Positions 3,001-16,549 of a stretch of DNA of 64,000 nucleotides are shown here, one piece after another. The notes below the pieces were generated by a model that had not been told where the DNA came from, did not search any database, and worked only from the letters and a program-made list of their open reading frames with translations. Source of the DNA: an uncultured Candidatus Saccharibacteria bacterium. Its GTDB lineage: Bacteria > Patescibacteriota > Doudnabacteria > UBA920. Position 1 is the first letter of the stretch; every line of letters begins with the position of its first letter. Where the stretch lies: the NCBI GenBank assembly GCA_964474825.1, contig CAYYWQ010000001.1, forward strand, positions 677,609 to 741,608. Reading direction: 5' to 3'. Made by a program: the position numbers and the translations under genes.

Positions 3001-3670
3001 GAATGAAGTCATTGCAGTGCGTGGTATACTTTTGCCGACCGTCAGCCACATTGTTGGCTGGAGTTGCAATACCGACCACGGAAAGGTAGTTGGCGTTGGG
3101 TAACTGTTTACTCTTTCCGTCCGCGTTGCGGAGACGGATACCATATTCCAAGTTAGCGTAAAAGTTTCCCTGGCTGTGACCAACAAGAACAACGTAGTAA
3201 CCCTTGCTCCAAAAGTCCAACACGACTTGATCTAAGGTTGCCAGATCAGAATCGGCTTTGAACTGATCATCCTGGAATCCCAAGGCCGCTGCCATAAAAG
3301 ATTTATGGGCTTGGGACTGTTGGTTAAGCAGGTTAAGATCGTTGAGATACTTGTCGACCTCCTGCATACCAATTTGGTCAATTGCCTGATTGATGTCGCC
3401 TCTGCCAAGCAGAGTCTTGAGCAGGCCGGAACTTTGGTTGTGGACCGCTTTAAATTCCACGCAAGAGGAACTTAGACCAGGGTTAGAGGCCATAAACCTT
3501 GCTTTGATCTGGTCAACAAAGTCTTGCCATATTTTACTATCCGGTACCAAAATCCCATTGGCCCAAACAAATGCAGTCTTGCCGTAGGGGCAATCCTGCG
3601 CCAAAACCAGGCCACTGGACGAAACCAGCAACCAAAACAAAAACAAAATACGGCCTAAGCCGCTTTTCAT
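1..3670 (-). CDS. Large secreted multidomain protein, 5' part only (C-terminus beyond window edge). Contains a signal peptide, a lipase-like alpha/beta-hydrolase domain, a Thr/Gly-rich Ig-like linker and two tandem LamG-type (concanavalin A-like, Laminin_G_3-like) jelly-roll domains.
   Basis: The minus-strand frame is open from ATG at 3668-3670 (AGGAG-like RBS ~9 nt upstream) to position 1 with no stop. It is missing from the ORF track because the stop is outside the window. Features read from my translation: N-terminal MKSGLGRILFLFWLLVSSSGLVLAQ signal; nucleophile-elbow motif VLVGHSQGNFYANLEY; two diverged repeats each ending ...WHHVAITYDGVTM(K/R).Y(V/I)(D/N)GVLDNS....GSLDD(L/F)A(I/V)F(N/S)RPLT..EV..LYGGGG, the hallmark C-terminal strands of LamG_3 domains. 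The region is visibly more GC-rich than its neighbours. Confidence 0.8.
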   Translation of the reverse strand, partial: MKSGLGRILFLFWLLVSSSGLVLAQDCPYGKTAFVWANGILVPDSKIWQDFVDQIKARFMASNPGLSSSCVEFKAVHNQSSGLLKTLLGRGDINQAIDQIGMQEVDKYLNDLNLLNQQSQAHKSFMAAALGFQDDQFKADSDLATLDQVVLDFWSKGYYVVLVGHSQGNFYANLEYGIRLRNADGKSKQLPNANYLSVVGIATPANNVADGRQKYTTHCNDFIHFAPAFVRVPESAMPWNVRDSLLSCITTYVVVPSLSLGAAALNAVNVGYSVKAHLLPTYMTDNSNTQKQIFQHLEDSLPDPGCGGDTNCYLKDSFRSADYTGNWLQTSDSATISNSTAIQSAGVLLFNSHTYLFSGGGMYPATVNGSVTLRTRRVFVGPVDITFFINTNIGGGKSIFSLKKALKDSTILALTIDSVKNSVETFPNLVTINSTASNFGGWKLLTITKTNNTVSMSVGGATWSVASDLMDGLYLEIESQGDNTLHVKDLSVVRTAAAGLQPPPTLIPTCSANPAVITAGQSTVFTGSYTGGTGAVSGVWGKVVSGSGTTATYATTTSTPAGFGSATFTVTDSGSPKQAATANCSVQINAPVLPSVPGALSSTSLATESSLLWYASFNNNTNDSKGTNNGVPANITYVAGKHGQAASFNGSNSHITLPTPISFLPSKQFSVVVWTYQTFAKYADILVTAKDTLLNRYKGYEFALIDSQKVRVYVDGADTAYFTGNTVLSLNTWHHVAITYDGVTMKIYVDGVLDNSGAVPASVTDSYGNSIVGAFFNDAYGANFNGSLDDLAIFNRPLTSTEVSMLYGGGGGTGIAQPPSVLPQQPPTPTPGNIQTLNPVANTPFDITVTNATNFVLGKIQAWVFDTGACTAGCRHPDSLLANVTASGMVLQKVQLAAGDHYLKFRNTDSGAWSNASATFTVAPAVVSGPIPFSQTSLALDPSLMVCYSFNGNTNTCKGTNNATPTNITYSSGKFEQAANFNGSSSHIIPTSPISFTAKNFSIIFWLYQSQAKFHQIFTTNKDLGANNYKDYEFVVLANQKLRAYVDGGNTAIFNGNTAIPLNSWHHVAITYDGVTMRSYINGVLDNSAAIAPSVADSFGNFIIGAWYGNAYGINLAGSLDDFAVFSRPLTASEVATLYGGGGTATVTQPTQPTQPTTGTVNNSVSGYSRTILCTLNGVSISAPSILTNQDAGSKTLVCTPPPGYNISSITPTQILQGGGTVN

Positions 3671-3817: not shown

Positions 3818-4648
3818 TTAATATTGATCTTTCACATTCTCACAGGAATAAATCGAACCTACGGGAGTGATATATGGTTTACCTTTGGTATCATTATCTT
3901 CAAATACTTTTTTTCGTTCTGGGGTATTTTTGACCATATACCATAGCTTGTCACTATTTGAATAATCCCTAAGACCTGTACCAAAAACAAGGTGATTGTA
4001 ACAGTCCTGAAAAGTAAACACTGAAACCATTAATTCTTTATAATGTTCATGGTCTCCTGTAGTGGTTATAACATCCTGTTCTTTTTTCACCATAGCCCTT
4101 AGCACTCTCCGTACTTCGTCGTTTCCCGGATACATAAAAACAATTTCTCTTTGCAAATCATCTCTTACTCCATCGTTGTCCGAGTCTATGCCCGCAAGAG
4201 TTGCCTTACCGGCCTCACCAGGATCGGGCGGAAGAGTAATTGAGGTATCCGTAATAGCAAACCTTACTACCGTCGCAGTTTTAAGGCCATTTACATATAG
4301 GCTAAAAGTGATGGTCTGGGGCTTCTTTAACAATTCTGGAGAAACTTGATAGCTTCCGGTAAAACCACCCTCAGTTTGTCTATCTAATAACACCTTTGAA
4401 CTCGAGGTTGTGGTAGCCAAAGATTTCAGAAAGGCACCCCATACAGGTAAACTGCTTTTAATCTTTAAGTTAAAGCTTAAAAGCGTTTGGCTCTTTGTAG
4501 TTGAGACTAAGACAGCCTCTGGACTAACCGTGGCGGAAATTACTTGTGGGGTCTGACTAAGAAAAACCAAACCTAACAATATTACTATTCCCACTGGGAC
4601 TGCCCACTTTAAATGGAATTTAAGCTTTGGTGTCATATTAATACACAA
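3818..4648 (-). CDS. Hypothetical secreted/membrane-anchored protein (N-terminal hydrophobic segment). The start may be the internal Met of MTPKLKF...
   Basis: 276-aa ORF; N-terminal KWAVPVGIVILLGLVFLS hydrophobic stretch; no recognisable catalytic motifs. Confidence 0.5.
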   Translation of the reverse strand: MCINMTPKLKFHLKWAVPVGIVILLGLVFLSQTPQVISATVSPEAVLVSTTKSQTLLSFNLKIKSSLPVWGAFLKSLATTTSSSKVLLDRQTEGGFTGSYQVSPELLKKPQTITFSLYVNGLKTATVVRFAITDTSITLPPDPGEAGKATLAGIDSDNDGVRDDLQREIVFMYPGNDEVRRVLRAMVKKEQDVITTTGDHEHYKELMVSVFTFQDCYNHLVFGTGLRDYSNSDKLWYMVKNTPERKKVFEDNDTKGKPYITPVGSIYSCENVKDQY

Positions 4649-4885
4649 TTAATTTGTTCTCTATATTATACTCTATTTCTGAATTTCGAGAACACTAAAA
4701 ACACTAAAATTTACAGTATCGCATTATGCCTCCTGGGCATTGTTAAAGTACTGTCCATAAGGTAAATTTAGGCTCAACAACATTGTTGTCAATATTAAAC
4801 AAGGCTTACTCTTGTGTTTATTTGTATATTGGTGTAATCTGTTGTCATACTCTAACAGTAAAATCATTATTAAATAATAACCTTT

Positions 4886-5659
4886 ATGGACAGTGTGTTA
4901 GTTAAACAGCTCAAAAACTTCGGACTTTCAGAAAAAGAGTCAAAAATCTACCTTGCTTTGCTGGAATTAGAAATGGCAACCGTATTTGAAGTTGCCAAAC
5001 AGTCAGGCATAAACCGCAGTTCCGCTTACGTGGTTTTAGAGGCCTTAAAGAAAAAAGGATTTGTAGGAATATCTGACGACAAAAAAGTCCGTAAATATAT
5101 TGCAGCTTCCCCGGAAACTCTTCTCCATGCAGCAAAAGCCGCTGCCAAAAAACAGGAAGATACAAAAGAAGGAATTGAATCTATTCTTCCAGAACTAAAG
5201 GCACTGCACAAGTCTACGAAACATAGACCTATAGTAAAAATATTTGAGGGGGAAAGTGGAGCAAGGGAAGTATATTGGGATGTTTTATCAACAAAAACAA
5301 AAAAAATAAAAGTTTTTGCAAACCCCGATAATATATTTAAAAGAATTCCGGATTTTTTAGATTACGATAAAGAAAGAAGTGAGAAAAAAATTAAAATGTT
5401 TGCAATAAGCCCAGCGACCAAAGGAGTGGTAAACATATATAAATACACCCCACCACATCAACCCTATGAAGCTGCTTTAATTCCTGAAAGTAAATTTAAA
5501 TTCACATCGGACATTGGAATATATGAAAATAAAGTCTCTTTTGTTTCTCCAGAGGACAACTTTGGGATAATTATAGAAAGTCAAGAGATTGCGGACATGC
5601 TCGGAAACAGCTTTGATTTGGCATGGGAAGAAGCAAAAAGACTGGATAATAGAACGTAA
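4886..5659 (+). CDS. TrmB-family HTH transcriptional regulator
   Basis: The N-terminus LKNFGLSEKESKIYLALLELEMATVFEVAKQSGINRSSAYVVLEAL matches the TrmB wHTH signature. It lies immediately upstream of, and in the same orientation as, the 7-gene operon. Confidence 0.75.
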   Translation: MDSVLVKQLKNFGLSEKESKIYLALLELEMATVFEVAKQSGINRSSAYVVLEALKKKGFVGISDDKKVRKYIAASPETLLHAAKAAAKKQEDTKEGIESILPELKALHKSTKHRPIVKIFEGESGAREVYWDVLSTKTKKIKVFANPDNIFKRIPDFLDYDKERSEKKIKMFAISPATKGVVNIYKYTPPHQPYEAALIPESKFKFTSDIGIYENKVSFVSPEDNFGIIIESQEIADMLGNSFDLAWEEAKRLDNRT

Positions 5660-5815
5660 ATAGTTCTGCATCTCATATACTTTAAGTTTTTAAAGTCTTA
5701 TGATGAGCTTTCTTTTCTCTACTATATTTTAAAATGTGTATATTTAAAAAGCACAAAAGTTAAAAATGTGTTATAATTATACAGACTTTCTTACATAAAG
5801 AAACAAAAAAACGTA

Positions 5816-6829
5816 ATGCGGCCAATAATTTCATTTCCAGATATTGAAGGCTTAAATCGCCTTTCAAAAACTGAAAAAATCAATCTTTTATTGACTGCTG
5901 CCTCTTTAGCTCCTTCCACAATCAACACCCAACCCTGGCTATTCAAGATCGAAGGCAATAGAATAGAATTATTTCTAAACCCTTCCCGCCATCTTCCGGT
6001 TTCTGACTCAAGTGGAAGACAAGCCTATATTAGCCTTGGGGCATGTTGGGCTAATTTAGAGTTACTTGCCCAAAGCTATGGACTAAAATACAGGACCGAA
6101 CAACCAACTAAAATTGCAATAAATAAAGCGGTTGCAAGTTTTATTATTGAAGACTTTAAATCCAGTAACGATGACTCCGAAACTAGGGAGGCGATAATTC
6201 AAAGGCATACCAACAGATTCCCGTTTGAAAAAAAACCCCTTCCTTTAAATTTTGTTCAAAAAATAAAACTGACATCCTCGCCTACTCTTACCCTACATTT
6301 AGCAGAAGATGGGGAAACAAAAAATGAAATAACCCCTATAGTTCTTGATTCGGTATTTGAAATGTTCTCCAAAAAAGACTGGTCTAAAGAATTATCACAT
6401 TGGGTAAAACCCGGCTTAAAAAAATACGAGGACGGTATGCCTGGTTATTATTTAGGAGTTCCCCTGCCAATTTCTTTCCTAATGCCCTTAGTCTTAAAAT
6501 ATGGCTCAGTTGCTAAAATGCAACTACAAACTCATAAAAAAATGCTTAGTTGGGTAGGTGCATACGGAGTCATTACTGCTTCAGAGAATAATCCCTTAAC
6601 TTGGTTTTTAACTGGGGAAATGTTTGAAAAAATTGCTATAGAAGCGCAAAAAAATAACATTAAGGTTGGAATACTAACAGCACCCACCGAAATAGAAACT
6701 TATAGCCAAAAACTAAAAAAAATCTTAGGGACGTCAAATACTCTACAAATGTTTTTCCGCTTAGGCTTTACTGAAAAAACCCCCATTTTCAGTCCTCGCT
6801 TACCAATAAACAAAATAATTAAAGTATGA
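5816..6829 (+). CDS. Nitroreductase-superfamily protein (double-domain Acg/SagB-like size class)
   Basis: Has LAPSTINTQPW (nitroreductase NxQPW motif) and RHTNRFPFE (RxxxRxF FMN-site motif). At 337 aa it is larger than simple NfsB-type enzymes. Confidence 0.7.
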   Translation: MRPIISFPDIEGLNRLSKTEKINLLLTAASLAPSTINTQPWLFKIEGNRIELFLNPSRHLPVSDSSGRQAYISLGACWANLELLAQSYGLKYRTEQPTKIAINKAVASFIIEDFKSSNDDSETREAIIQRHTNRFPFEKKPLPLNFVQKIKLTSSPTLTLHLAEDGETKNEITPIVLDSVFEMFSKKDWSKELSHWVKPGLKKYEDGMPGYYLGVPLPISFLMPLVLKYGSVAKMQLQTHKKMLSWVGAYGVITASENNPLTWFLTGEMFEKIAIEAQKNNIKVGILTAPTEIETYSQKLKKILGTSNTLQMFFRLGFTEKTPIFSPRLPINKIIKV

Positions 6830-7869
6830 ACGGTTCAAAAATTTTACTTAAGGACTTTGACAATCATCGCCTAGTAACTTTCATTTACGACCCCCAATCT
6901 AAGCTACAGGGATTTATTGCTATACATAGAGGCAACGGCAGCAATGTCCCCTCTTTTGGTGCCACAAGATTTGTTTCTTATAACACTCTCACAGATGGCC
7001 TACATGACGCTTTGCGATTATCCCGCTTAATGTCCTATAAGGCTGCAATGGCTGGCTTAAAATATGGAGGAGCAAAAGGAGTAATTCTTATTCCCCAAGT
7101 CCCACATAATAAAAAACAAATTTTACAGGCATACTGCAAAAAAATAAACTACCTTAACGGCCATTTTATTACCGGTGCCGACGTAGGCATTAACGGTTCC
7201 GAGGTAGGAACAATGAGGAAATATAGTAATTTTATTGTTGGTGTAAAAGTTGATCCAGTCAAATATACAGTTTTAGGCATTTTGTACGGCTTACAAGTTT
7301 CACTACAAGAAGTCTTTGGAAACTCAGACATTCAAGAAAAAACATTCTCCATTCTGGGGGTAGGAAAAATTGGCACGGGTATTTTAAAATCAATATATGG
7401 GCAGGCAAAAAAAATCTATATTTCCGACATAGACCAACAACAAATTAAAAAAATTAAGCACGCCTTTCCCAAAATAACGATTCTTTCCCCGCAAGAAATT
7501 TTCAAACAAAAAGTGAATGTGTTTATGCCCTGCGCATTAGGCAACGCATTAAATACTAAAACAATATCAAAACTTAGGTCGGATATAATTTTAGGAGGGG
7601 CAAATAATCAATTAACGAACAGCACTGTTGGGGAATTATTATTTAAACTTGGTATTCTATATGCCCCAGATTATGTTGTAAATGCAGGCGGTTTGATTTC
7701 AGTTGTGGACGAATATGAGAACAAAAATATAGTGGAAACTAGAATTGAAAAACGGCTAAGTAATATTAAGACAGCACTTCGTTCTATTTTTAAACAAAGC
7801 ATGGCAACCGGCATAGCTACAAATATGGTTGCAGATAAAATGGCAGAAAAAATTTTTAACAATCATTAA
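6826..7869 (+). CDS. Glu/Leu/Phe/Val-type amino-acid dehydrogenase family protein (Leu/Phe/Val dehydrogenase-like)
   Basis: PSFGATRFVSY...ALRLSRLMSYKAAMAGLKYGGAKGVI matches the catalytic Lys/Gly-rich region of LeuDH/PheDH. ILGVGKIGTG forms a GxGxxG NAD(P)-binding site. The start overlaps the upstream gene by 4 nt. Confidence 0.75.
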   Translation: MNGSKILLKDFDNHRLVTFIYDPQSKLQGFIAIHRGNGSNVPSFGATRFVSYNTLTDGLHDALRLSRLMSYKAAMAGLKYGGAKGVILIPQVPHNKKQILQAYCKKINYLNGHFITGADVGINGSEVGTMRKYSNFIVGVKVDPVKYTVLGILYGLQVSLQEVFGNSDIQEKTFSILGVGKIGTGILKSIYGQAKKIYISDIDQQQIKKIKHAFPKITILSPQEIFKQKVNVFMPCALGNALNTKTISKLRSDIILGGANNQLTNSTVGELLFKLGILYAPDYVVNAGGLISVVDEYENKNIVETRIEKRLSNIKTALRSIFKQSMATGIATNMVADKMAEKIFNNH

Positions 7870-7888
7870 TAATTAAGAAATAATCTTT

Positions 7889-8704
7889 ATGCAAGCTAGT
7901 GCCGAGAACACAAAAACAAAAGAATGGTGGGAGAGTGAAGGAGGTTTCTTTGGAGACCTCTATAGGCAGGCAGATAATTCTCAAGAAGGCCACCTAAACT
8001 CACCTCAAGACTTGTTAGCCAGAACGGAAAAAGAAGTTAACGGAGTTATAAAATTATGCACCTTAAACCCAGGTGGTGCCGTTATGGACTGCCCATGTGG
8101 TTACGGCAGACACTCTTTAGCCTTGGCACAAAAAGGTTTTCAAGTAACTGGAGTCGACATTAATAAAACTTTTCTCAAACACGACAGGGAAGAACTTGAA
8201 AAAGCCAAGCTTGCCAATTGTCAGTTTGTCGAAAAAGACATGAGGCAAGTGGACTTTAACAATCAATTTAATGCTGTAATAAATATGTTCTACTCTTTTG
8301 GATTTTTCGAAACAGAAGAGGAAAATTTAAAAGTCGCAGCGAATTTTTATAACGCTCTAAAACCAGGTGGAAGGTTTTTAATGCATACGCATATCACTCT
8401 TCCAAAAATCTTAAATGGTGATTACAAAACCCATGAAATCAGAACCCTACGAGACGGAAAGAAGCTAGAATTATTCCGCACATACAACACCCAAACCAAA
8501 AGAGAAGATGGAGAATGGTTTATTTTACATGAGGATGGCAAAAAAGATTCTCTTACCCCCTACTCCGTACGGATTTACAGCCTGGAAGAATATACTGATT
8601 TATGTAAAAAGGCTGGTTTTAAAGAAGTGTTAGCTTATGGAGACTGGTCCGGTACGCCGTACACCGATAAATCTCCAGAATTAATTGCAGTTGCCGTAAA
8701 ATGA
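7889..8704 (+). CDS. Class I SAM-dependent methyltransferase
   Basis: VMDCPCGYGRHSLALAQKGFQVTGVDIN (motif I, DxGxGxG-like) and a downstream acidic motif II. Confidence 0.75.
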   Translation: MQASAENTKTKEWWESEGGFFGDLYRQADNSQEGHLNSPQDLLARTEKEVNGVIKLCTLNPGGAVMDCPCGYGRHSLALAQKGFQVTGVDINKTFLKHDREELEKAKLANCQFVEKDMRQVDFNNQFNAVINMFYSFGFFETEEENLKVAANFYNALKPGGRFLMHTHITLPKILNGDYKTHEIRTLRDGKKLELFRTYNTQTKREDGEWFILHEDGKKDSLTPYSVRIYSLEEYTDLCKKAGFKEVLAYGDWSGTPYTDKSPELIAVAVK

Positions 8705-10272
8705 CTGTAAAAAATTCTTTATTCTCTGGAGCCTTACCGTTTCCCAATTCTGTGGAGTGGAAATCTTTTTATTCTGCGGATTTAAAAACGATGGTCAAAA
8801 AGTTTATAACTTTCTCCCCAAACGTTTTTGAAAAAATGGGAGAGCAAATGGCCTTTAATCTTTTTCACAACATGGCCAAGCGAGTCCCAGCTTATAAAGA
8901 TTACCTGAAGAGTAATAAGATTAACTCGCAAAAAATTAAAACGTTCTCCGATTTAAGATTTATACCGTGGATAGACAAAGAAAATTACCTTAAAAAATAT
9001 CCTCTAAAAGACTTATGCTGGGACGGTAAATTAACAGCGCCAATAATTTCAGCAAGTTCTGGCTCTTCCGGCCAACCATTTTTTTGGCCTAGGTCCTCAG
9101 CAATAGAAAAAGAAACCTCCTACATATACGAATTATTTTTACGTTTTTTGTTTGATATAGGCAAAGTACCCACTTTGTTAATAAACGGTTTTTCTATGGG
9201 TATATACATTGGGGGCACGTTCACTCTTAACTGTTCAATGAGGCTTCATCAGAAAGGTTATCCTTTAACAATAATGACCCCCGGTATCCATCAGGAAGAA
9301 ATTCTAAAAATTGTAGAAAAAATTGGTGGAAACTATGGGCAGATAATACTGGGTGGTTATCCTCCTTTTATTAGGGACATTTTAGATGCAGGCGAAAAAA
9401 GAGGTATTAACTGGAAAAAGAAAAATATAAAATTTATATTTGCTTCGGAATCCTTAAGCGAAGAATTTCGCTCTTACCTTTATTCCAAAGTTGGTATCTC
9501 TAACTCTTCATATTTGACTTCTTCAATGAACCTTTACGGAACCGCCGACGCCGCAGTTGCCGGTCACGAAATGCCCTTGAGCATACTTATTCGCAAGCTT
9601 TTTAGTAAAAACGCAGAACGTACCCAAGATTTCTTCTCCAAGACCTACGTGCCTTCTTTGAACCAATATTATCCATTTTTTAAATATTTCCAGACTGAAA
9701 ACGGTGAGTTAATTTTTTCCACTTCCCATAATGAAATTCCATTACTAAAATATAACATCCATGACAGGGGTAACATAATTTCATATGAAAATATGCTGGA
9801 GATAGCTAGGTCCTTTGGTTATAACACCAATGATTTAAACAAATTAGTTGGCAAACAATTGCTCTGGCGTTTACCATATGTTTATCTTTACGGCCGGAGC
9901 GATTTCACTACAACTCTTTACGGTTTAAATATCTACCCTGAAAATATAAAGGCCGCACTGGAAACTCCTGCGATCCGCCATCTCTGCAGCGGAAAGTTTG
10001 TTATGGAAACAAAAAATCGTGCAAAGACTCAAAAGCAGTATCTGGCGGTTCGTGTAGAACTCGCAAGTGGAATAAAGCCCTCTAAGTCTTTAGAGCGCAA
10101 ATTCCAGCAAGTAATTGTAACTACTTTACGCAAAAAAAATTCCGAATTTAACCACTTATTTCATTCAATAAAAAACCAAGCCCTGCCTGACATAAGCTTG
10201 AATATTAAAGGCGAAGGCGTTTACTTTAAACCCAGCATCAAACAACAATGGGTCAATAAAATCAAATCTTGA
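8701..10272 (+). CDS. Adenylate-forming enzyme of the phenylacetate-CoA ligase (PaaK) / coenzyme F390 synthetase / CapK-like family
   Basis: ISASSGSSGQPFFWPRS matches the P-loop-like AMP-binding motif (T/S-SG-T/S-xGxP). LYGTADAAVAG matches the core motif. The ~520-aa size is consistent with the ANL-superfamily PaaK-like subgroup. Overlaps the upstream gene by 4 nt. Confidence 0.6.
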   Translation: MTVKNSLFSGALPFPNSVEWKSFYSADLKTMVKKFITFSPNVFEKMGEQMAFNLFHNMAKRVPAYKDYLKSNKINSQKIKTFSDLRFIPWIDKENYLKKYPLKDLCWDGKLTAPIISASSGSSGQPFFWPRSSAIEKETSYIYELFLRFLFDIGKVPTLLINGFSMGIYIGGTFTLNCSMRLHQKGYPLTIMTPGIHQEEILKIVEKIGGNYGQIILGGYPPFIRDILDAGEKRGINWKKKNIKFIFASESLSEEFRSYLYSKVGISNSSYLTSSMNLYGTADAAVAGHEMPLSILIRKLFSKNAERTQDFFSKTYVPSLNQYYPFFKYFQTENGELIFSTSHNEIPLLKYNIHDRGNIISYENMLEIARSFGYNTNDLNKLVGKQLLWRLPYVYLYGRSDFTTTLYGLNIYPENIKAALETPAIRHLCSGKFVMETKNRAKTQKQYLAVRVELASGIKPSKSLERKFQQVIVTTLRKKNSEFNHLFHSIKNQALPDISLNIKGEGVYFKPSIKQQWVNKIKS

Positions 10273-10276
10273 AGCC

Positions 10277-11311
10277 ATGCTAAAACCCTACTTCTTTAAA
10301 AAACAAAAACCAACCCGAGTTGAACTAAAAAAATTTCCGGTTAAAAACATGGTGGATATTTTTACCACGCAAAATCGGGAATTGTTTGACGTTTTAAATC
10401 CTCATGCTAAATTCGAACAAAATTACAAAAAAAACCTAGAAAAATTTTTAAAAAACAGAGTTGGGCAATGGATTTATTTTCCTTGGAACCAAACCCTTCT
10501 GCACACCCTTCTTTCTAATGAGCTCTTTTTATTAAGAACCAATCGAAACAGAAATCTTATTAATAACGAGGAGCAGAATACTCTTGCTAATTTTACAGCG
10601 GCTGTAATTGGGCTTTCTATTGGCAACTCCATAGCCTTAAACCTACTCTATAATGGCATTTCCAGAAAAATTAAAATAGCAGATTTAGATACTTTAGAAA
10701 CATCTAATCTAAACCGTGTCAGAGCAAGCCTACAGGATGTTGGCAAAAGCAAAATCTCAATTACTGCAGCGCAAATTTATGAAATTGATCCCTACGCGTC
10801 TATTTATGCCTTTGAAAAAGGAATTCAAGACAAAACTTTAAAACAACTCTTTGCAAACCCAAAACCAAAAATTATATTCGAAGCAATTGATGATTTAAAA
10901 ATGAAAATCCAAATCCGATTAGCAGCAAAAAAGGCTAAAATCCCGGTTGTAATGTTGACTAATTTAGGAAATAATATACTTATAGATGTAGAACGCTATG
11001 ACTTAGATAAAAATTTACAACTCTTCAACGGCCTAATAGGAAAAGCTGGCAAAGAGATCCTAAATTCAACAATATCCGAGCAGGATAAACAACGTTATGC
11101 CGTAGCAATAGTTGGGAAAGAAAATGTTCCTTTAAAAGCATTAGATTCATTACGGGAAATTAATAGAACATTAGTTGGCAGGCCCCAACTAATGTCAACG
11201 GTAACCATTGGTAGCGGCATAGCCTCGCTTATAGCCAAAAAGATTGCTCTAGGTGAACCTGTCAAAAGCGGCCGCAGTTTAATCAAGCTAGAACAGTTGA
11301 TTAATTTTTAA
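10277..11311 (+). CDS. ThiF/MoeB/E1-like nucleotidyltransferase-domain protein
   Basis: AAVIGLSIGNSIALNLLYNGISRKIKIADLDTLETSNLNR matches the ThiF Rossmann GxGxxG segment and the downstream D..E.SNLNRQ motif. The N-terminal ~100 aa are an extension. Confidence 0.65.
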   Translation: MLKPYFFKKQKPTRVELKKFPVKNMVDIFTTQNRELFDVLNPHAKFEQNYKKNLEKFLKNRVGQWIYFPWNQTLLHTLLSNELFLLRTNRNRNLINNEEQNTLANFTAAVIGLSIGNSIALNLLYNGISRKIKIADLDTLETSNLNRVRASLQDVGKSKISITAAQIYEIDPYASIYAFEKGIQDKTLKQLFANPKPKIIFEAIDDLKMKIQIRLAAKKAKIPVVMLTNLGNNILIDVERYDLDKNLQLFNGLIGKAGKEILNSTISEQDKQRYAVAIVGKENVPLKALDSLREINRTLVGRPQLMSTVTIGSGIASLIAKKIALGEPVKSGRSLIKLEQLINF

Positions 11312-11315
11312 TCTT

Positions 11316-12197
11316 ATGGACACGAGTGAAAAAAAACTTCTTGAAAGTCTTGGAAATATTAAAGCAGAAATTAAGCAATTTACGACAGAAGATGTTACAA
11401 TAAACTATGTTAAAGCAGGAACAGGTTTTCCACTATTACTAATTCATGGAGCCAACTTTGGTTGGGGTCAATGGCATACCTTAATCACCGATCTTTCACA
11501 AAACTACACTGTGTATGCTGTAGACCTTCCAGGATTTGGCAACTCCACTTCCTTAAACTATGAAAAACTGGAATTTAACCGTCAGCTAGTTAAACCCATG
11601 GCATCTTTTGTTGAAAAAATGGGTTTGCAAAATAGTTTTGTAATGGGCCATTCTTTAGGAGCTTGGGTTGGGATGAAATTGGTTTTAGATGGTTATGCGA
11701 ATTTTAAAAAAATAATATTAGCAAATCCTTTAGGGTTCTCAAAAGATACACCACTACAATATAAATTACTTGGCCTACGCTGGGTGGCCAAACTGCTCGC
11801 AAAAACTGTCCTAAAAATAAGGCCGGGAAACATAAAAAAATTTTTAAATATTCCACTACACACTAAAGTCAGCTTCCTTCCAGAATTTACTGATTATTAC
11901 CATTCCATATCAAAAGGCGAATTCAGGCATCCTTTTTACTTATTTAACCGTATAGCTGGATTTAAAAAAGTTAACAAAGAATTAATACTTGACAGCAAGC
12001 TCTCACAAATTCATCAACCAGTTTTAATTATTGGCGGAGAGTATGATCCCATTGTATCTTTAAACCATAAACAAATAGAACTAATAAACCTACTACCTGA
12101 AGCAAAGATTAAAGTAATAAAAGGGGTTGGTCACGTCCCTTTTTTTGAAAATAGAAACGAATTTTATAAAGTCATTAATGAATTTTTAAAAAAATAG
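11316..12197 (+). CDS. Alpha/beta-fold hydrolase
   Basis: LLLIHGANFGWGQW (HG oxyanion region), VMGHSLGAWVG (GxSxG nucleophile elbow), C-terminal GHVPFFE (His of the catalytic triad). Confidence 0.75.
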   Translation: MDTSEKKLLESLGNIKAEIKQFTTEDVTINYVKAGTGFPLLLIHGANFGWGQWHTLITDLSQNYTVYAVDLPGFGNSTSLNYEKLEFNRQLVKPMASFVEKMGLQNSFVMGHSLGAWVGMKLVLDGYANFKKIILANPLGFSKDTPLQYKLLGLRWVAKLLAKTVLKIRPGNIKKFLNIPLHTKVSFLPEFTDYYHSISKGEFRHPFYLFNRIAGFKKVNKELILDSKLSQIHQPVLIIGGEYDPIVSLNHKQIELINLLPEAKIKVIKGVGHVPFFENRNEFYKVINEFLKK

Positions 12198-12201
12198 CTG
12201 A

Positions 12202-13854
12202 ATGGAAATTATATCCAAGTTAGAATTTATTCTTCTGTTATGCGCCATAGCAATCAATGCTTTACTAGCTTGGGTTGTTTATACAAGTGACAAAAAAAGT
12301 GATACAAACAGACTTTACACAGTATTAAGTTTAAATATTTCTGTTTGGCTGATTATAAACTACATCTCTCACACAACCTTATTTTTAAGTAATAGTATTT
12401 ACTGGATTCGCCTAAGTTTGTTTTTTGCGCTTCCCATGAGCATGTTGTTCTTCCTGTTTGCCCATACAATACCGGAAAAAGTAATACGTATATCCAAACG
12501 GCAGTTAGTACTATTATTCGCGCTAACTGGATCGGCCATGCTGTTAACGATATCACCCTATACTTTCACCGAGGTCAAGCTGGTTAATGGTTCGCCTCTA
12601 CCCGTTACAGGTCCGGGAATAATTTATTTTGGATTCATATCAATTACCTACAGTCTTTTTGCTGCAATTACATTTTTCCGAAAATACAAGTCTTCGACTG
12701 GCGAACAACGACTCCAATTCAAATATATTATGTATGGCGTCTTGTCGATGATAGGCTTGATTACCACTACTATTTTCTTGCCGGTTATATTTTTTAGCAA
12801 CAATACCTTTCTTGGTTTATTGCCTCTCTACACGCTAATTTTTCTTACTATTTCGGCGTATGTAATCATTGGCTTACATTTATTCAAAGTAAAACTTATC
12901 GCCACTGAGGCCTTATTTTTTGCACTTTGGATAGGTCTTTTTTCTCAGGCATTAGGAAGAAATTCTGTTTCTGATCTTTTTGTAGGCTTTATTATGCTTT
13001 TTGGATTAACTGTTTTGGGATATTTACTTATCAATGGGGTTAAAAAGGAAGTTGAACAAAAAGAGCTATTAGAAGCTTTAACACAAGAGTTAGGTGATGC
13101 TAATGAGAAGCTTCAGAGTTTGGACAAGGCTAGGGCGGAGTTTATTTCTATTGCTAGCCACCAACTACGCACTCCCCCTTCCACTGTAAAATGGTATATG
13201 TCTTCCGTGCTTTCCGGGGATTTTGGAAGAATTTCGGCCAAAGTTTTAGAGCCTCTTAAAAAAGTAAACGAAACCAACAACCATTTAATTTCTTTAATTG
13301 AGGACATGTTAAACGTTTCGCGTATAGAACGCGGAAAAATGGAATTTTTATTTGAGCAGACTAATGTGCAGGACTTGGCCAAACAGGCTTTTGACCAGTT
13401 AATTCCTATGGCCAGCGACAAAAAACTAAAGTTTGATTTCGATTCCCCCAAAAAACCCTTACCAGAAATAATGGCAGACAAAGAAAAACTTAAGCAGGTT
13501 ATGAACAACCTAACAGATAACGCCTTAAAGTATACCAAGTCCGGCAGCGTTAAAGTTAAAATTTACGAAAAAGACGGAAATATTTTCTTTGAAGTCACAG
13601 ACAGCGGTAAAGGCATTAGCAAAGAAGACCGTGAAAGCATTTTCCAAAAATACACCAGAGGCAAAGAATCTGTTAAGCAAAGCGCGGGCCTGGGCCTTGG
13701 GCTTTATGTTGCCAAAATAATTATAGAGCAGCACAAAGGCAAAATTTGGGCCGAAAGCCCTGGCGAAGGCCAAGGCAGCACCTTTGCCTTCAGCGTCCCA
13801 ATTAAGAATGACTTAAAGGCTACTACGCTTGTTGACCTAGCCACACAAAAATAA
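12202..13854 (+). CDS. Sensor histidine kinase with an N-terminal multi-pass (about 7 TM) membrane domain. No adjacent response regulator in the window.
   Basis: Hydrophobic N-terminal ~290 aa, coiled-coil linker, H-box FISIASHQLRTPPSTV, N-box DNALKYT, G-boxes DSGKGISKE and GLGLGLYVAKII. Confidence 0.85.
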   Translation: MEIISKLEFILLLCAIAINALLAWVVYTSDKKSDTNRLYTVLSLNISVWLIINYISHTTLFLSNSIYWIRLSLFFALPMSMLFFLFAHTIPEKVIRISKRQLVLLFALTGSAMLLTISPYTFTEVKLVNGSPLPVTGPGIIYFGFISITYSLFAAITFFRKYKSSTGEQRLQFKYIMYGVLSMIGLITTTIFLPVIFFSNNTFLGLLPLYTLIFLTISAYVIIGLHLFKVKLIATEALFFALWIGLFSQALGRNSVSDLFVGFIMLFGLTVLGYLLINGVKKEVEQKELLEALTQELGDANEKLQSLDKARAEFISIASHQLRTPPSTVKWYMSSVLSGDFGRISAKVLEPLKKVNETNNHLISLIEDMLNVSRIERGKMEFLFEQTNVQDLAKQAFDQLIPMASDKKLKFDFDSPKKPLPEIMADKEKLKQVMNNLTDNALKYTKSGSVKVKIYEKDGNIFFEVTDSGKGISKEDRESIFQKYTRGKESVKQSAGLGLGLYVAKIIIEQHKGKIWAESPGEGQGSTFAFSVPIKNDLKATTLVDLATQK

Positions 13855-13858
13855 CATA

Positions 13859-13968
13859 GGACTTCCACACCGCTACTTTTCTGGACTGGCGGAACTTGTC
13901 ACCGTAGATAAACTACGCCTCCAAACATCCTCAGAAAATGCCTCGAACTTGGCTCAGTGTGGAAGCCC
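13859..13968 (+). ncRNA. Candidate structured RNA element (copy 1), of unknown family, followed by an intrinsic terminator
   Basis: A ~110-nt intergenic segment closed by the 9-bp inverted repeat CTTCCACAC/GTGTGGAAG, with an internal conserved hairpin CGTAG-ATAAA-CTACG. Three sequence blocks are conserved, in reverse complement, at 57428..57650. Confidence 0.35.
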
Positions 13969-13972
13969 TATC

Positions 13973-14004
13973 AAAAAAACTCTTGTTAAAACAAGAGTTT
14001 TTTT
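13973..14004 (+). terminator. Rho-independent terminator
   Basis: AAAAAAACTCTTGTT-AAA-ACAAGAGTTTTTTT: a perfect stem followed by a T-tract. Confidence 0.65.
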
Positions 14005-14064
14005 GGGTCACAAGAATTGAGTTAACATAGTGTATAATAGAATTACTTACATAACATTAGCGGT

Positions 14065-14814
14065 ATGGTTAATTTAACAACAGGCGGTAAATATAAGTTT
14101 GCAACAGTAAAACAGAACTACGAAGATTATTCTAGCGGGAGGGTACTTTATGGCGCAACCGGAGCAACCGGTTTTCCTGTTAGGTTAACAAGTGAAATTT
14201 TCCAGAGAGCCGCTAGAAGACTAGAGAACGCTGGGGTTAAGGCCCCTTATTCTATTTACGACCCTTTTTGCGGGGCCGGTTACTCCTTAACCGTTATAGG
14301 GTTTTTGCACGGAAGCGCGATTAAAAATATAGTCGCTTCTGACGTTAACAAAGAAGCCCTGGTGACCGCACATAAAAACCTTTCCCTATTAACTACAAAA
14401 GGGTTTAACAATAGGATTCAAGAATTAATTAAATTAAAAAATACCTACAACAAAACTTCACATAAAGAGGCTTTAGAAAGTAGCGAGCGTTTGAAAAACA
14501 AGGTGCCAAATATAGACATTAAAATATTTGAATTTAATATACTTAGTAAACAAAATTTACCTATACCCCAAACTTCCATAGATTTAGTTTTAACAGACTT
14601 ACCCTACGGCAAACTTACCCAATGGGAAGGAAAGGAAGCAGCGGTTAACCCAACCCAAAACTTTTTAAATAATATTAGCCTCCTGCTTAAACCAAACGCA
14701 ATAATAGCAATAAGCGCTAACAAAAAACAAAAACTCGCTCATGAAGGCTATAAACGAGTAGACCTGCTCAAACTCGGAAAAAGACAAGTGTTGTTTCTTA
14801 CTAAAATAGCTTAG
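14065..14814 (+). CDS. Putative N6-adenine/N2-guanine-type nucleic-acid methyltransferase (UPF0020/RlmL-like putative RNA methylase)
   Basis: DPFCGAGYSLTVIG (motif I, D-P-x-C-G-S/A-G) and DLVLTDLPYG (motif IV, a (D/N/S)PPY variant). Confidence 0.6.
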   Translation: MVNLTTGGKYKFATVKQNYEDYSSGRVLYGATGATGFPVRLTSEIFQRAARRLENAGVKAPYSIYDPFCGAGYSLTVIGFLHGSAIKNIVASDVNKEALVTAHKNLSLLTTKGFNNRIQELIKLKNTYNKTSHKEALESSERLKNKVPNIDIKIFEFNILSKQNLPIPQTSIDLVLTDLPYGKLTQWEGKEAAVNPTQNFLNNISLLLKPNAIIAISANKKQKLAHEGYKRVDLLKLGKRQVLFLTKIA

Positions 14815-14832
14815 ACCATTAAAACTGGAATA

Positions 14833-14866
14833 AAAAAAACAGCCCCAACTTTTGGGGCTGTTTTAA
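14833..14866. terminator. Bidirectional Rho-independent terminator
   Basis: AAAAAAAACAGCCCC-AACTTTT-GGGGCTGTTTT, with A-tract and T-tract flanks, between convergent genes. Confidence 0.7.
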
Positions 14867-14871
14867 ATTTT

Positions 14872-15273
14872 TTAATTCGCTTGGTCTTTCATGCTTCCCA
14901 GCATTTCTTCTTCAAAGTGGAGTAAGAATTGTTCGGGGTCTGGGGTACTTCCGAATAGAATGTGTTCTACGCTGTTGCGCTGGCCGCGGTTTTGGCTGCT
15001 GCCCACGCCTTTGGTTTGAAACCATTCCTGCCAAGCTGCGCTGAAGTCTTTATAACCTTGGGTACCCTCTTTGCCATATTTGGCAAAAATTAAATCATAC
15101 TTGGTTGTGTCGCAAATATTTATGAATTCACTTTTTTCTTCCATGCTTAAAAAACCATTTACCTGCGCGGAATGCTTTATTCTTTGGCAGTGGGGGTTGG
15201 TGTAAACAGCCTGGCAAATTTCCCGGCCAAGCTGAGTCCATTCTTTGTCGAATTTTTGAAAATCAAAACCCAT
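14872..15273 (-). CDS. Hypothetical cytoplasmic protein
   Basis: 133-aa ORF ending at the convergent terminator; no recognisable motif. Confidence 0.45.
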   Translation of the reverse strand: MGFDFQKFDKEWTQLGREICQAVYTNPHCQRIKHSAQVNGFLSMEEKSEFINICDTTKYDLIFAKYGKEGTQGYKDFSAAWQEWFQTKGVGSSQNRGQRNSVEHILFGSTPDPEQFLLHFEEEMLGSMKDQAN

Positions 15274-15334
15274 GGGGGTACAAGCTAATCAGCCGATCAG
15301 CTAATAAGCATATCAGCTAAAATCCAGTAGGATT

Positions 15335-15607
15335 TTATGCGGTTACTTTTAATTTCAGTTTGTCTACCAATTTTTCCCAGCGCTTTTCGTCTTCGTTTTT
15401 TAAATATCTCAATAAGCGGCGGCGGTTGCCGACCATTTTAAGCAAACCACGGCGGGAATGATTGTCTTTGCGGTGGGTCTTTAAATGCTCGCTGACCTGT
15501 TCAATTTCTTTGGTCAAAATAGCAACCTGGACTTCCGGGCTTCCGGTGTCGTCTTTATGCGTCTGAAACTTCTTAATTAACGCGTTTTTCTCTTTAGGGG
15601 TAAGCAT
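15335..15607 (-). CDS. rpsO: 30S ribosomal protein S15
   Basis: [50 protein letters not shown] is the near-universal S15 signature. Confidence 0.95.
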
Positions 15608-15736: not shown

Positions 15737-16549
15737 CTACCTTAAATATGCTACAAACTCCCCAATTGCATTGTAACCCGTTAACTCTTCATACCCGCTC
15801 ACCCCAGGCCAGCGGTTAACTTCTAATATATAGTACTTGCCTTTACTTTCAATAATGTCTACTTTGGCCAGCTCCCGTTTAAGCAAAGCAGATGCTTTTT
15901 CAGCTAGCGCTACAACCTCTGCCACTGACTGTGCAGCAACGGAATCATGGGCATAATAATCCACCCCAAAGCCTGTGTCAGAAATTTTATGCCTTAAAAC
16001 CACAGGCAAACTTTTGTAGCCAACTGTAATAACTTTATACTCATACTCAGCCTCTAAAAATTCCTGAACCATTAATTCATCCCGCGGAATAGTGGACGGG
16101 ATTTTTTGCATGTCTTCTAGCTGGCGAATTAAAAAAGTACCCTGGCCCTTAAAACCGTAGATCCATTTTAAAATTAGCGGATACCTTAAATCTTCAATCT
16201 TAAATCCTAAATCAGTTTTAGGAATTGCCAGCCCTGCCTTTCCTAAAACTTTATAATCTTCCCATTTTCCTTCTCCTAATTCGCCCTGAGCAATAGCAGC
16301 ATCTACAACTTTTTTACCGGCGACTTTAAATTTTTTGGCCAAGTCAATAATTTGCAGAAAGTATTTGGGGCTGCCGTTCAAATACGGTAGGCGAATGTAA
16401 AAAACGCTATAGTCGTCCACGTTAACCTCAAAACTCCTTTCCACCAACTCCTGCATACTCAAAACCTCCACAGCAACATTTTGCAGTTTAGCTTCTTCCA
16501 CAAACCTTCGCGTAAAATAAACGCTTTTTAGAGATATCAACAGTATCAT
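15737..16549 (-). CDS. RimK-type ATP-grasp ligase (alpha-L-glutamate ligase-like)
   Basis: ATP-grasp motifs: PLILKWIYGFKGQGTFLI, YKVITVG and the C-terminal YILEVNRWPGVSGYEE. Confidence 0.8.
   Translation of the reverse strand: MILLISLKSVYFTRRFVEEAKLQNVAVEVLSMQELVERSFEVNVDDYSVFYIRLPYLNGSPKYFLQIIDLAKKFKVAGKKVVDAAIAQGELGEGKWEDYKVLGKAGLAIPKTDLGFKIEDLRYPLILKWIYGFKGQGTFLIRQLEDMQKIPSTIPRDELMVQEFLEAEYEYKVITVGYKSLPVVLRHKISDTGFGVDYYAHDSVAAQSVAEVVALAEKASALLKRELAKVDIIESKGKYYILEVNRWPGVSGYEELTGYNAIGEFVAYLR

Follow-up and report, generated by a model that had tools for sequence, protein, structure and literature searches.

Introduction

What use could a genome-reduced bacterium of the candidate phyla radiation (CPR) have for an operon in which six enzyme genes are followed directly by the gene of a membrane sensor kinase? 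We address this question for an uncultured Candidatus Saccharibacteria bacterium (Patescibacteriota, Doudnabacteria, UBA920 in the GTDB taxonomy; assembly GCA_964474825.1), of which we analyzed 64 kb of contig CAYYWQ010000001.1 (positions 677,609 to 741,608 of the forward strand), hereafter called the window. All coordinates are positions in this window unless a locus from another genome is named, and the DNA stretch under study spans 4886-13854. The operon encodes an Acg/FDO-type nitroreductase-like flavoprotein (FDO), an amino-acid dehydrogenase of the ELFV group, an S-adenosylmethionine (SAM)-dependent methyltransferase, a PaaK-like adenylate-forming ligase, a ThiF/E1-like protein, an alpha/beta hydrolase, and a histidine kinase with a seven-transmembrane (7TM) sensor. 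With moderate confidence, we propose that it makes a small oxazolone-type (i.e., N-acyl-dehydroamino-acid) metabolite from amino acids and that this metabolite is coupled to the 7TM sensor kinase.

Oxazolones have become known as natural products only in recent years. Oxazolone synthetases have been demonstrated experimentally for TrzS, TyzBC, and OxzB (PMC12856293, PMC10404671, bioRxiv 10.1101/2020.06.11.147165; reviewed in PMC12596934). The enzymes that form tyrosine- and phenylalanine-derived oxazolones are known as two separate proteins (TyzB and TyzC) and as a single fused one (OxzB) (PMC12856293, PMC10404671, bioRxiv 10.1101/2020.06.11.147165). In Mycobacterium tuberculosis, TrzS is Rv1355c and the gene pair Rv1356c/Rv1355c is known as TrzAS, and all known natural oxazolones come from aromatic amino acids (PMC12856293). 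Their physiological role was explicitly left open in the work on Pseudoalteromonas and M. tuberculosis, where signaling was speculated upon. In the literature that we searched, oxazolones are nowhere mentioned together with CPR bacteria, and a Cell paper on Saccharibacteria genetics mentions none of the genes of the cluster.

Conservation of the gene cluster

We compared the operon with two sets of related loci, designated by L numbers. A ThiF-anchored scan with one genome per species returned 134 relatives, of which the best 80 loci were examined and annotated by BLASTP against the window proteins; gene counts below refer to the 39 ThiF-anchored loci in which the ligase is present and both flanks reach 4.5 kb or more. 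The ligase-anchored set was composed from three look-ups and a metagenome scan (511 relatives, 80 loci) and includes 29 loci in which the ligase is flanked by 4 kb or more in both directions.

The genes for the PaaK-like ligase, ThiF, FDO, and the 7TM kinase are syntenic in about 60 of the best 80 ThiF-anchored loci, and these belong to CPR/Patescibacteria (Saccharimonadia, Magasanik-, Woyke-, Gottesman-, Doudna-, Nomura-, Staskawicz-, Lloyd-, and Berkelbacteria, among others). Some of them are filed under Gammaproteobacteria, but the genes around the cluster resemble those of CPR. FDO is present in 31 of the 39 loci, with divergent or opposite-strand copies in 7 more, and a receiver-only response regulator in 19. 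In most loci, the FDO gene adjoins that of ThiF. Among the 29 long ligase-anchored metagenome loci, 11 are of the cluster type (10 with the kinase, 9 with ThiF), and the other 18 carry a second ligase subfamily that we describe below. This clustering is far beyond chance. The original prediction, made from the letters of the window, had considered a dedicated secondary-metabolite-like cluster in a reduced genome. The operon is indeed a dedicated unit of this type in a CPR-type genome, and the synteny test that the prediction had proposed is strongly positive. It had also treated the seven genes as one set, which holds for the widely linked ligase, ThiF, FDO, and kinase but not for the methyltransferase, a gene restricted to the window and its nearest relatives.

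Several of the enzymes are also found fused to each other. We observed FDO-hydrolase fusions in eight loci, a ThiF-hydrolase fusion in L007, ThiF-FDO fusions as in mycobacterial TrzS in the CPR loci L029 and L032, and further proteins combining ELFV-PaaK-ThiF (1242 amino acids), PaaK-ThiF, ThiF-PaaK, or ELFV-PaaK. Such fusions bind the enzymes into a single pathway. At the other extreme, minimal variants (L088, 5729-10978; L102; L115) consist of an aminotransferase or ELFV dehydrogenase, the ligase, and a 7TM(-GAF) kinase without ThiF or FDO, and two short contigs (L098 and L104) likewise carry ligase-kinase variants lacking both. The invariant core is therefore the ligase together with the kinase, to which a tailoring module of ThiF, FDO, and the hydrolase is often, but not always, added.

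That the operon is a chance row of housekeeping genes, i.e., a plain leucine dehydrogenase (LeuDH), a plain PaaK, and a ThiF serving thiamine, molybdopterin, or ct6A synthesis, is hardly credible. The source annotations of the homologues do read this way (phenylacetate-CoA ligase, molybdopterin/thiamine adenylyltransferase, tRNA threonylcarbamoyladenosine dehydratase), but every corresponding equivalog model (PaaK, ThiF, TcdA, MoeB) fails widely, and synteny over many CPR classes together with the multi-domain fusions effectively refutes this explanation. The outcomes that had been named in advance as fatal to the idea of a dedicated operon (a plain LeuDH, a plain PaaK, or a lack of conservation) are thereby all excluded.

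A few loci merit separate mention. In the complete Saccharibacteria genome CP064992.1 (L052, ca. 7800-14300), the aminotransferase gene is broken into two pieces, ThiF is truncated, the kinase is spread over two open reading frames (ORFs), and an FDO fragment lies on the opposite strand; this cluster looks decayed, which may reflect pseudogenization or an assembly error. Streptomyces sp. NPDC strains (L074, 8037-11940; L076; L078) encode a kinase-free trio of PaaK-like ligase, ThiF, and FDO with 4-nt overlaps, adjoining large proteins without a Pfam domain. In the CPR locus L087, an NAD-dependent epimerase/reductase gene (5866-6945, minus strand) is divergent from the ligase gene. Beta_methylindole_red_C is among its Pfam matches, which hints at indole chemistry, and a response regulator gene as well as pilM/N/O and T2SSF genes (12599-15527) come after the cluster.

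ThiF and FDO

The ThiF-like protein matches the Rv1355c family model NF005901 with 268 bits over its residues 16-343, aligning to the N-terminal half of the model, and the next ThiF model follows at 64 bits. FDO aligns to the other half: besides 185 bits to the Acg/Rv3131 model NF047509, it scores 74 bits to positions 370-530 in the C-terminal half of the Rv1355c model. With ThiF resembling the N-terminal and FDO the C-terminal half, the gene pair therefore resembles a split Rv1355c, and together the two proteins look like a split oxazolone synthetase of the kind of OxzB, TyzBC, or TrzS. The original prediction could not map the gene set onto any known pathway; we find that ThiF and FDO correspond to the oxazolone-synthetase pair known from Pseudoalteromonas and Mycobacterium.

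Details of both proteins are in line with this assignment. ThiF is 32% identical to a TrzS-like fusion of M. gordonae (E value 5e-55), with D205 aligning to the conserved aspartate of that protein. D205 of ThiF and R130 of FDO would be the counterparts of the residues altered in published experiments on TrzS (D217A and R540A). Across 20 homologues, G112/S114/G116, D138, N144-R147, K159, and D205 are invariant and comprise the glycine loop, the arginine finger R147, the lysine, and the Mg-binding D205. The protein has an N-terminal winged-helix-like extension, which is also part of the TrzS model, and not a single cysteine (predicted model with pLDDT 91). It reaches only 64, 43, and 35 bits on the ThiF, MoeB, and TcdA equivalog models with their cut-offs of 159, 266, and 304, and there is no ThiS/MoaD-like partner, i.e., no small ubiquitin-like ORF is conserved across the loci. 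Its nearest relative of known structure in the PDB, both by sequence and by fold, is AclA of Tenacibaculum discolor (9egb, a complex with its substrate; 25% identity, TM-score 0.80 on the target). The sole PDB relative of FDO is Acg (2ymv). An alignment of 60 FDO homologues, fused TrzS-like proteins among them, shows R130 in every sequence (100%) and an APSxxNxQPW motif with conservation of at least 97%, and we predict that FDO is a C-alpha/C-beta desaturase. Its scores on the Acg-family model and on part of the Rv1355c model would fit either subgroup, FDO-A or FDO-B.

E1-like proteins and nitroreductase-type flavoproteins also meet in peptide tailoring, and most characterized ThiF enzymes of secondary metabolism act on peptides (PMC12596934). 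ThiF might thus activate the C-terminus of a ribosomal peptide or of a protein, possibly the kinase, with FDO as a SagB-like dehydrogenase. The winged-helix-like N-terminal domain fits this idea, as do Foldseek alignments to MccB with its peptide clamp, which extend over 313-349 columns compared to ca. 260 for ThiF and MoeB. However, these MccB alignments have root-mean-square deviations above 10 Å, the TrzS model shares the N-terminal extension though the TrzS substrate is a small molecule, and ThiF has neither a cysteine nor a ThiS/MoaD-like partner. Moreover, Pfam and NCBIfam reveal no YcaO and no SagB-type match among the operon proteins, the small ORFs listed in 4600-5900 and 13800-14100 include no plausible precursor, and clustering of small ORFs across loci retrieved only antisense shadows of neighboring genes (for aminotransferases and bactofilins). 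We consider peptide tailoring very improbable. The absence of YcaO and of a precursor-peptide gene had been recognized correctly in the original prediction, though its analogy to azoline-forming, SagB-type systems does not hold for a ThiF of the Rv1355c/TrzS clade, a flavoprotein of the Acg/FDO type, and an operon without YcaO.

The PaaK-like ligase

Known oxazolone pathways supply their synthetase with an N-acyl amino acid made from acyl-CoA or acyl-ACP by an N-acyltransferase. The operon encodes no FeeM or GNAT domain, and BLAST searches for TrzA-like, GNAT, or FeeM proteins (E value up to 1e-3) remained blank in the window and in all CPR loci. Such acyltransferase genes do flank fused ThiF-FDO genes in the non-CPR loci L063, L068, L062, and L080, where they encode FeeM domain proteins if the locus is Moorena-type and TrzA-like proteins if it comes from M. 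gordonae or Nannocystis. The Nannocystis metagenome-assembled genome (MAG; L062, 3726-12247) has two sets of GNAT and ThiF-FDO fusion genes around a tryptophan halogenase gene (PF04820, 379 bits), a layout that suggests halogenated tryptazolone-type products.

In the operon, the place of the acyltransferase could be taken by the PaaK-like protein. It has no Pfam match at all and reaches only 47.6 bits on the PaaK equivalog TIGR02155 with its cut-off of 646.3. An AlphaFold model built from 36 homologues (pLDDT 89.9) retrieved PaaK-type ligases in Foldseek with E values around 1e-21, followed by AjiA1 and ClxA at 1e-15 to 1e-13 (6wuq, 1.9e-15; 9s3l, 8.7e-14). Its SSGSSG P-loop, the hinge residue D355, and the C-terminal K514 are invariant among homologues, which form a distinct and moderately large family of 545 representative clusters (50% identity, E value up to 1e-30). 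AjiA1 and ClxA are PaaK-like enzymes that form ester or amide bonds straight from the acyl-adenylate, independently of CoA (PMC7204872, PMC9400959, PMC12519233). From gene context and the modeled fold, we tentatively predict that the ligase is a CoA-independent amide former that stands in for the N-acyltransferase.

A second subfamily, 37-41% identical to the ligase, has a different kind of partner. In 21 of 30 long metagenome loci (within L106-L163), its gene is divergent to two tandem genes for Hanks-type Ser/Thr kinases of ca. 570 and 720 amino acids with a transmembrane segment (e.g., L138, 3889-9413; L110, 3859-9407). Uma2 endonuclease, fasciclin, and glutathione S-transferase neighbors suggest that these loci may be from cyanobacteria.

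Proposed supply and tailoring enzymes

The ELFV protein is equally close to tryptophan dehydrogenase (TrpDH) and LeuDHs: its best NCBIfam match is ScyB TrpDH (261 bits, under the cut-off of 600), and its best PDB matches are a Nostoc TrpDH (5b37, 3e-61) and the LeuDH 3vpx. No homologue deviates at the catalytic K72, K84, or D119. Two pocket positions stand out: G117, equivalent to A113/G124, is shared by 27 of 27 homologues, and L290, equivalent to V291/L307, by 23 of 27. In the light of published mutagenesis of phenylalanine dehydrogenase and LeuDH, we take these positions to indicate a Phe/Trp-type pocket. We predict that the enzyme catalyzes the interconversion of aromatic L-amino acids and the corresponding 2-oxo acids. 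It occurs in 18 of the 39 loci and a divergently transcribed class-I/II aminotransferase in 13, but never both together (Fisher's exact test, p = 2.6e-5, ignoring kinship between the loci). This mutual exclusivity, in combination with the fusions, argues that 2-oxo-acid/amino-acid interconversion feeds the ligase.

The named relatives of the methyltransferase are mostly amine N-methyltransferases (daptide methyltransferase, CypM, DesVI, GSMT, PEAMT). Its gene is missing from all of the best 80 ThiF-anchored loci and is found between ELFV and PaaK in L082/L083, the closest relative of the window ligase (62% identity), so that it would be a lineage-specific tailoring step confined to the window and its nearest relatives. 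The hydrolase has an invariant S113/D244/H273 triad and HG motif, occurs in 13 of the 39 loci, and has its closest resemblance to HsaD and BphD, which hydrolyze meta-cleavage products. We view it as an optional module with a predicted role in opening or transferring the oxazolone.

CPR bacteria rely on host metabolites, PaaK-family enzymes classically open the catabolism of aromatic acids, ELFV dehydrogenases and aminotransferases are classically catabolic, and the resemblance of the hydrolase to HsaD and BphD points the same way. The operon might thus serve catabolism, salvage, or detoxification of host-derived aromatic acids or N-acyl amino acids, with the kinase detecting the external compound for the enzymes to activate and convert. 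We nevertheless regard this as improbable: no locus contains paaABCDE, thiolases, or similar genes, the ligase falls far below the PaaK cut-off, and the combination of a ThiF cyclodehydratase with an FDO desaturase has biosynthetic precedents only (PMC12596934).

The sensor kinase

The kinase has a conserved phospho-acceptor histidine (H320) as well as the ATP-binding N and G boxes, and five of six orthologues sampled across classes share the HisKA_7TM architecture, with longer ones adding a GAF domain. Its gene lies directly 3' of the enzyme genes in 35 of the 39 ThiF-anchored loci (all but two Streptomyces, one Actinomycetota MAG, and one Liptonbacteria) and in 21 of 24 PaaK-anchored loci of the cluster type, and the variants without ThiF keep the ligase-kinase link (L088, L102, L115).

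Signaling genes also accompany related enzymes elsewhere. Bacteroidota loci (L066, 4208-8152; L069, 9962-14990; L072, 9863-15473) encode a TrzS-type ThiF that scores 467 bits on the Rv1355c model, without FDO, followed by a GNAT-like protein of 230-250 amino acids, which is homologous (E value 1e-11) to the GNAT adjoining a Nannocystis ThiF-FDO fusion, and then by a 7TMR-DISM histidine kinase and a hybrid receiver-(PAS)-kinase. In M. gordonae, the trzAS-like genes overlap a GAF-GGDEF-EAL gene, and the same overlap with a signaling gene has been reported for trzAS of M. tuberculosis (PMC12856293). In L061, a ThiF-FDO fusion gene overlaps a gene for a SpoIIE-type phosphatase. At least four unrelated settings thus place enzymes of this pathway type next to proteins of signal transduction, and this gene context suggests, without proving it, that the metabolite acts as a signal.

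The same chemistry is also conceivable with the kinase as a mere regulator that senses another cue such as host contact or envelope stress, and with the product as an effector that acts against microbes, serves as a lipid in the membrane or envelope, or is directed at the host. Stieleriacines (N-acyl dehydrotyrosines) have indeed been reported as antimicrobial and tyrazolones as cell-associated lipids (PMC12856293, PMC10404671). In addition, the GAF domains present in the kinases of many lineages could sense a cytoplasmic cue, the cluster of L087 adjoins pilMNO genes, and no exporter is conserved in the neighborhood. On the other hand, the kinase gene itself closes the biosynthetic operon with 4-nt spacing in dozens of lineages, and three differing enzyme/kinase pairings recur in unrelated phyla. 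Since such recurring pairings are more typical of synthase-receptor pairs like LuxM/LuxN or CqsA/CqsS than of generic regulation, we consider the regulator explanation rather unlikely, though it deserves to be taken seriously.

Locus layout and surroundings

All eight ORFs lie at the coordinates of the original prediction (Table 1), and its observations of seven co-oriented genes with tight gaps were confirmed: within the operon (5816-13854), 4-nt overlaps are found at 6826 and 8701, and the other gaps measure 19, 4, 4, and 4 nt. Its family calls all proved correct by Pfam and NCBIfam, with the PaaK-like assignment drawn from a weak TIGR02155 match and the predicted fold.

Table 1. Features of the operon and its boundaries in the window.
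Feature	Position	Strand	Evidence and remarks
TrmB-family helix-turn-helix regulator	4886-5659	+	PF01978, 66 bits; 156 nt before the operon
Extended -10 element TGTTATAAT	5769-5777	+	Read from the sequence; ca. 40 nt ahead of the first enzyme gene; putative promoter
Acg/FDO-type nitroreductase-like flavoprotein	5816-6829	+	NF047509, 185 bits
ELFV (Leu/Phe/Trp-type) amino-acid dehydrogenase	6826-7869	+	PF00208, PF02812
Class I SAM methyltransferase	7889-8704	+	PF13649 and others
PaaK-like adenylate-forming ligase, 523 amino acids	8701-10272	+	Weak TIGR02155 match and predicted fold
ThiF/E1-like protein, Rv1355c/TrzS clade	10277-11311	+	NF005901, 268 bits
Alpha/beta-fold serine hydrolase or acyltransferase	11316-12197	+	PF00561
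HisKA_7TM sensor histidine kinase, final gene of the operon	12202-13854	+	PF16927, PF00512, PF02518
Perfect hairpin (16-bp stem, 2-nt loop) flanked by an A-run and a T-run	13972-14005	no strand	Inverted repeat, 100% complementary

The putative promoter element TGTTATAAT did not appear in a consensus promoter scan because it lacks a good -35 element. The hairpin is likely a bidirectional intrinsic terminator that closes the operon, and a scan of the plus strand within 5816-13854 for terminators gave only weak sites at chance level. With a -10 box of their own at the 5' end and the hairpin at the 3' end, the seven genes therefore look like a single transcription unit. The TrmB gene and the AviRa-type gene downstream are transcription units apart from it. 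A TrmB gene does sit upstream, as predicted, but its link to the operon is weak, given the intervening gap and homologues close to the cluster in just 3 of the best 80 loci (L018, L026, L028).

The operon has a GC content of ca. 0.35, compared to ca. 0.41 in its surroundings. The suggestion that dif-like motifs bound the region was not borne out: our repeat search around the operon found no bounding direct or inverted repeats and no dif-like pair. We therefore do not regard the operon as a mobile island in the absence of bounding repeats; its low GC content and flanks that are not syntenic with L082 merely hint at relocation. A gene for a XerC/D-type tyrosine recombinase (16768-17763, plus strand; PF00589, 155 bits) lies 3 kb 3' of the operon beyond genes for ribosomal protein S15 (15335-15607) and a RimK-like ATP-grasp protein (15737-16549), and no repeat pair connects it with the operon.

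Directly 3' of the operon is a gene for an AviRa-type 23S rRNA methyltransferase of the avilamycin-resistance family (14065-14814, plus strand; PF11599, 256 bits). A TATAAT of its own precedes it at 14033-14038, and a strong terminator for both directions follows at 14836-14864. An orthosomycin-resistance-type gene is unexpected in a CPR-like genome. We considered it as a self-resistance gene but treat it as unrelated, given its own promoter and terminator and its presence beside the cluster in no other locus. At the left edge of the window, a stop-free frame of more than 1099 codons on the minus strand (2-3298) runs off the end and has a GC content of 0.53, compared to 0.35-0.42 elsewhere in the first 20 kb. 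This is probably the gene of a very large secreted or surface protein of atypical composition; rRNA was considered for this GC-rich end and rejected, as there were no Rfam matches and the region is an ORF of more than 1099 amino acids. We also rejected a defense system (PADLOC; CBASS Cap2 and similar): ThiF matches E1-E2 models with at most 34 bits through its generic Rossmann core, and the other proteins had zero matches.

Discussion

The pathway that we propose would begin with the ELFV dehydrogenase, or with the class-I aminotransferase in Saccharimonadia, turning an aromatic L-amino acid into its 2-oxo acid. In the lineage of the window only, the SAM methyltransferase would tailor the substrate or an intermediate. 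The ligase would then adenylate a carboxylic acid, probably this 2-oxo acid, and transfer the acyl group to the amino group of an amino acid to give an N-acyl amino acid, i.e., the step performed by an acyl-CoA-dependent FeeM/GNAT acyltransferase in known systems. ThiF would adenylate the free carboxylate so that the amide oxygen can close the 5(4H)-oxazolone ring, FDO would desaturate the C-alpha/C-beta bond with O2, and the alpha/beta hydrolase, where present, might open or transfer the reactive azlactone. Finally, the 7TM kinase would sense the product or a related molecule, in many relatives with a receiver-only regulator encoded nearby, so that kinase and enzymes would act like an autoinducer synthase-receptor pair. 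This specific course, from the ligation of an aromatic 2-oxo acid with an amino acid through cyclization and desaturation to a product coupled with the kinase, seems to us evenly poised between right and wrong. Ring closure by ThiF and desaturation by FDO are predicted by homology with experimental precedent, and the other steps, the substrates, and the signaling role are proposed from gene context.

The resemblance of ThiF and FDO to a split TrzS, their conserved motifs, the absent acyltransferase, the fusions, the aromatic-type pocket of the ELFV dehydrogenase, and the linkage to the kinase all support this pathway. Several points weigh against it. The ligase shares just 13-17% identity with any solved ligase and could instead make a CoA thioester or nucleotidylate something else. 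FDO scores higher on the Acg/Rv3131 (FDO-B) model than on the C-terminal half of Rv1355c, and FDO-B enzymes are not known as oxazolone makers (PMC10404671). The chemistry of AclA, as the closest solved relative of ThiF, may bear on the reaction that we propose for it, and the interconversion predicted for the ELFV dehydrogenase leaves the direction of the reaction free. The variants without ThiF and FDO show that the oxazolone step is dispensable for whatever ties the ligase to the kinase. Concerning the kinase, its adjacency is equally expected from ordinary regulation, a database search with its sensor domain (residues 1-288) returned only two homologues, in line with fast evolution, and neither a response regulator nor an aminotransferase was found among the proteins of the 64-kb window.

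A bolder interpretation, which we offer only tentatively, is that the operon constitutes a self-contained chemical communication module of CPR bacteria: an aromatic N-acyl-dehydroamino-acid or oxazolone autoinducer would be made from scavenged amino acids by the PaaK-like ligase and the split oxazolone synthetase, with the co-transcribed 7TM kinase as its receptor and a receiver-only regulator relaying the signal, possibly to pili or host-attachment functions. More widely, oxazolones and their N-acyl precursors would then make up a class of signals that is common among bacteria and is perceived through membrane kinases and other signaling proteins, i.e., HisKA_7TM kinases in CPR, 7TMR-DISM kinases in Bacteroidota, Ser/Thr receptor kinases alongside the second PaaK-like subfamily, and c-di-GMP enzymes in mycobacteria.

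If our proposal is right, the operon points to a large, previously undescribed branch of oxazolone biosynthetic logic in which an ATP-dependent PaaK-like ligase replaces the acyltransferase that relies on acyl-CoA. This branch is found in genome-reduced, host-dependent CPR bacteria, where dedicated secondary metabolism is rarely kept, and its tie, seen in dozens of lineages, to a sensor kinase in the membrane offers a concrete ligand-receptor hypothesis for oxazolones and a candidate system of cell-cell or symbiont-host communication in CPR. The kinase-free Streptomyces homologues of the PaaK-like ligase, ThiF, and FDO provide a culturable entry point.

Comparison with known systems puts the operon in perspective. 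Its likeness to SagBCD/McbBCD of the thiazole/oxazole-modified microcin (TOMM) type is superficial: both combine an E1-like protein with a flavoprotein of the nitroreductase superfamily, but the operon has no YcaO, precursor peptide, or SagB-type signature, and its E1-like protein, with the adenylation site intact, falls into a clade that acts on small molecules. For the proposed signaling, the closest analogy is in LuxM/LuxN, CqsA/CqsS, and LqsA/LqsS, where a synthase gene lies beside that of a polytopic membrane histidine kinase without a large periplasmic domain. The operon shares this adjacency of synthase and kinase with no relationship in sequence, and the regulators encoded near its relatives are receiver-only.

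Closer biochemical parallels exist for individual steps. NatL2, AjiA1, and ClxA of benzoxazole biosynthesis share the PaaK fold and set the precedent for direct ester or amide formation from an acyl-adenylate, but they are only 13-16% identical to the ligase, use aminohydroxybenzoates as substrates, and work with a NatAM-type amidohydrolase that is absent from the operon. The stieleriacine, thalassotalic acid, and kyonggic acid clusters have the combination of methyltransferase, ThiF, and nitroreductase in common with the operon, and their products, in place of oxazolones, are ring-open N-acyl-2,3-dehydro-amino acids that would fit the role envisaged for the operon hydrolase (PMC12479983). However, they use NAS acyltransferases with fatty acyl donors and lack a PaaK-like ligase, an amino-acid dehydrogenase, and a kinase.

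The OxzAB (Pseudoalteromonas rubra), TyzACB, and TrzAS systems come nearest. They differ from the operon in having a FeeM/GNAT/AHL-synthase-like acyltransferase (AHL, acyl-homoserine lactone) where it has a divergent PaaK-fold ligase, and the FDO of the operon stands, by model score, no farther from the Acg/Rv3131 type than from the C-terminal half of TrzS. In addition, the operon, found in CPR hosts, adds an ELFV dehydrogenase or aminotransferase, a hydrolase, here also a methyltransferase, and the 7TM kinase within the operon itself. Yet these systems share with it an ATP-dependent ThiF cyclase of the same clade and an FDO-type oxidase, whether as separate proteins (TyzB/TyzC) or within one chain (TrzS/OxzB), an indicated chemistry of aromatic amino acids, and, as at trzAS of M. 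tuberculosis, signaling genes alongside.

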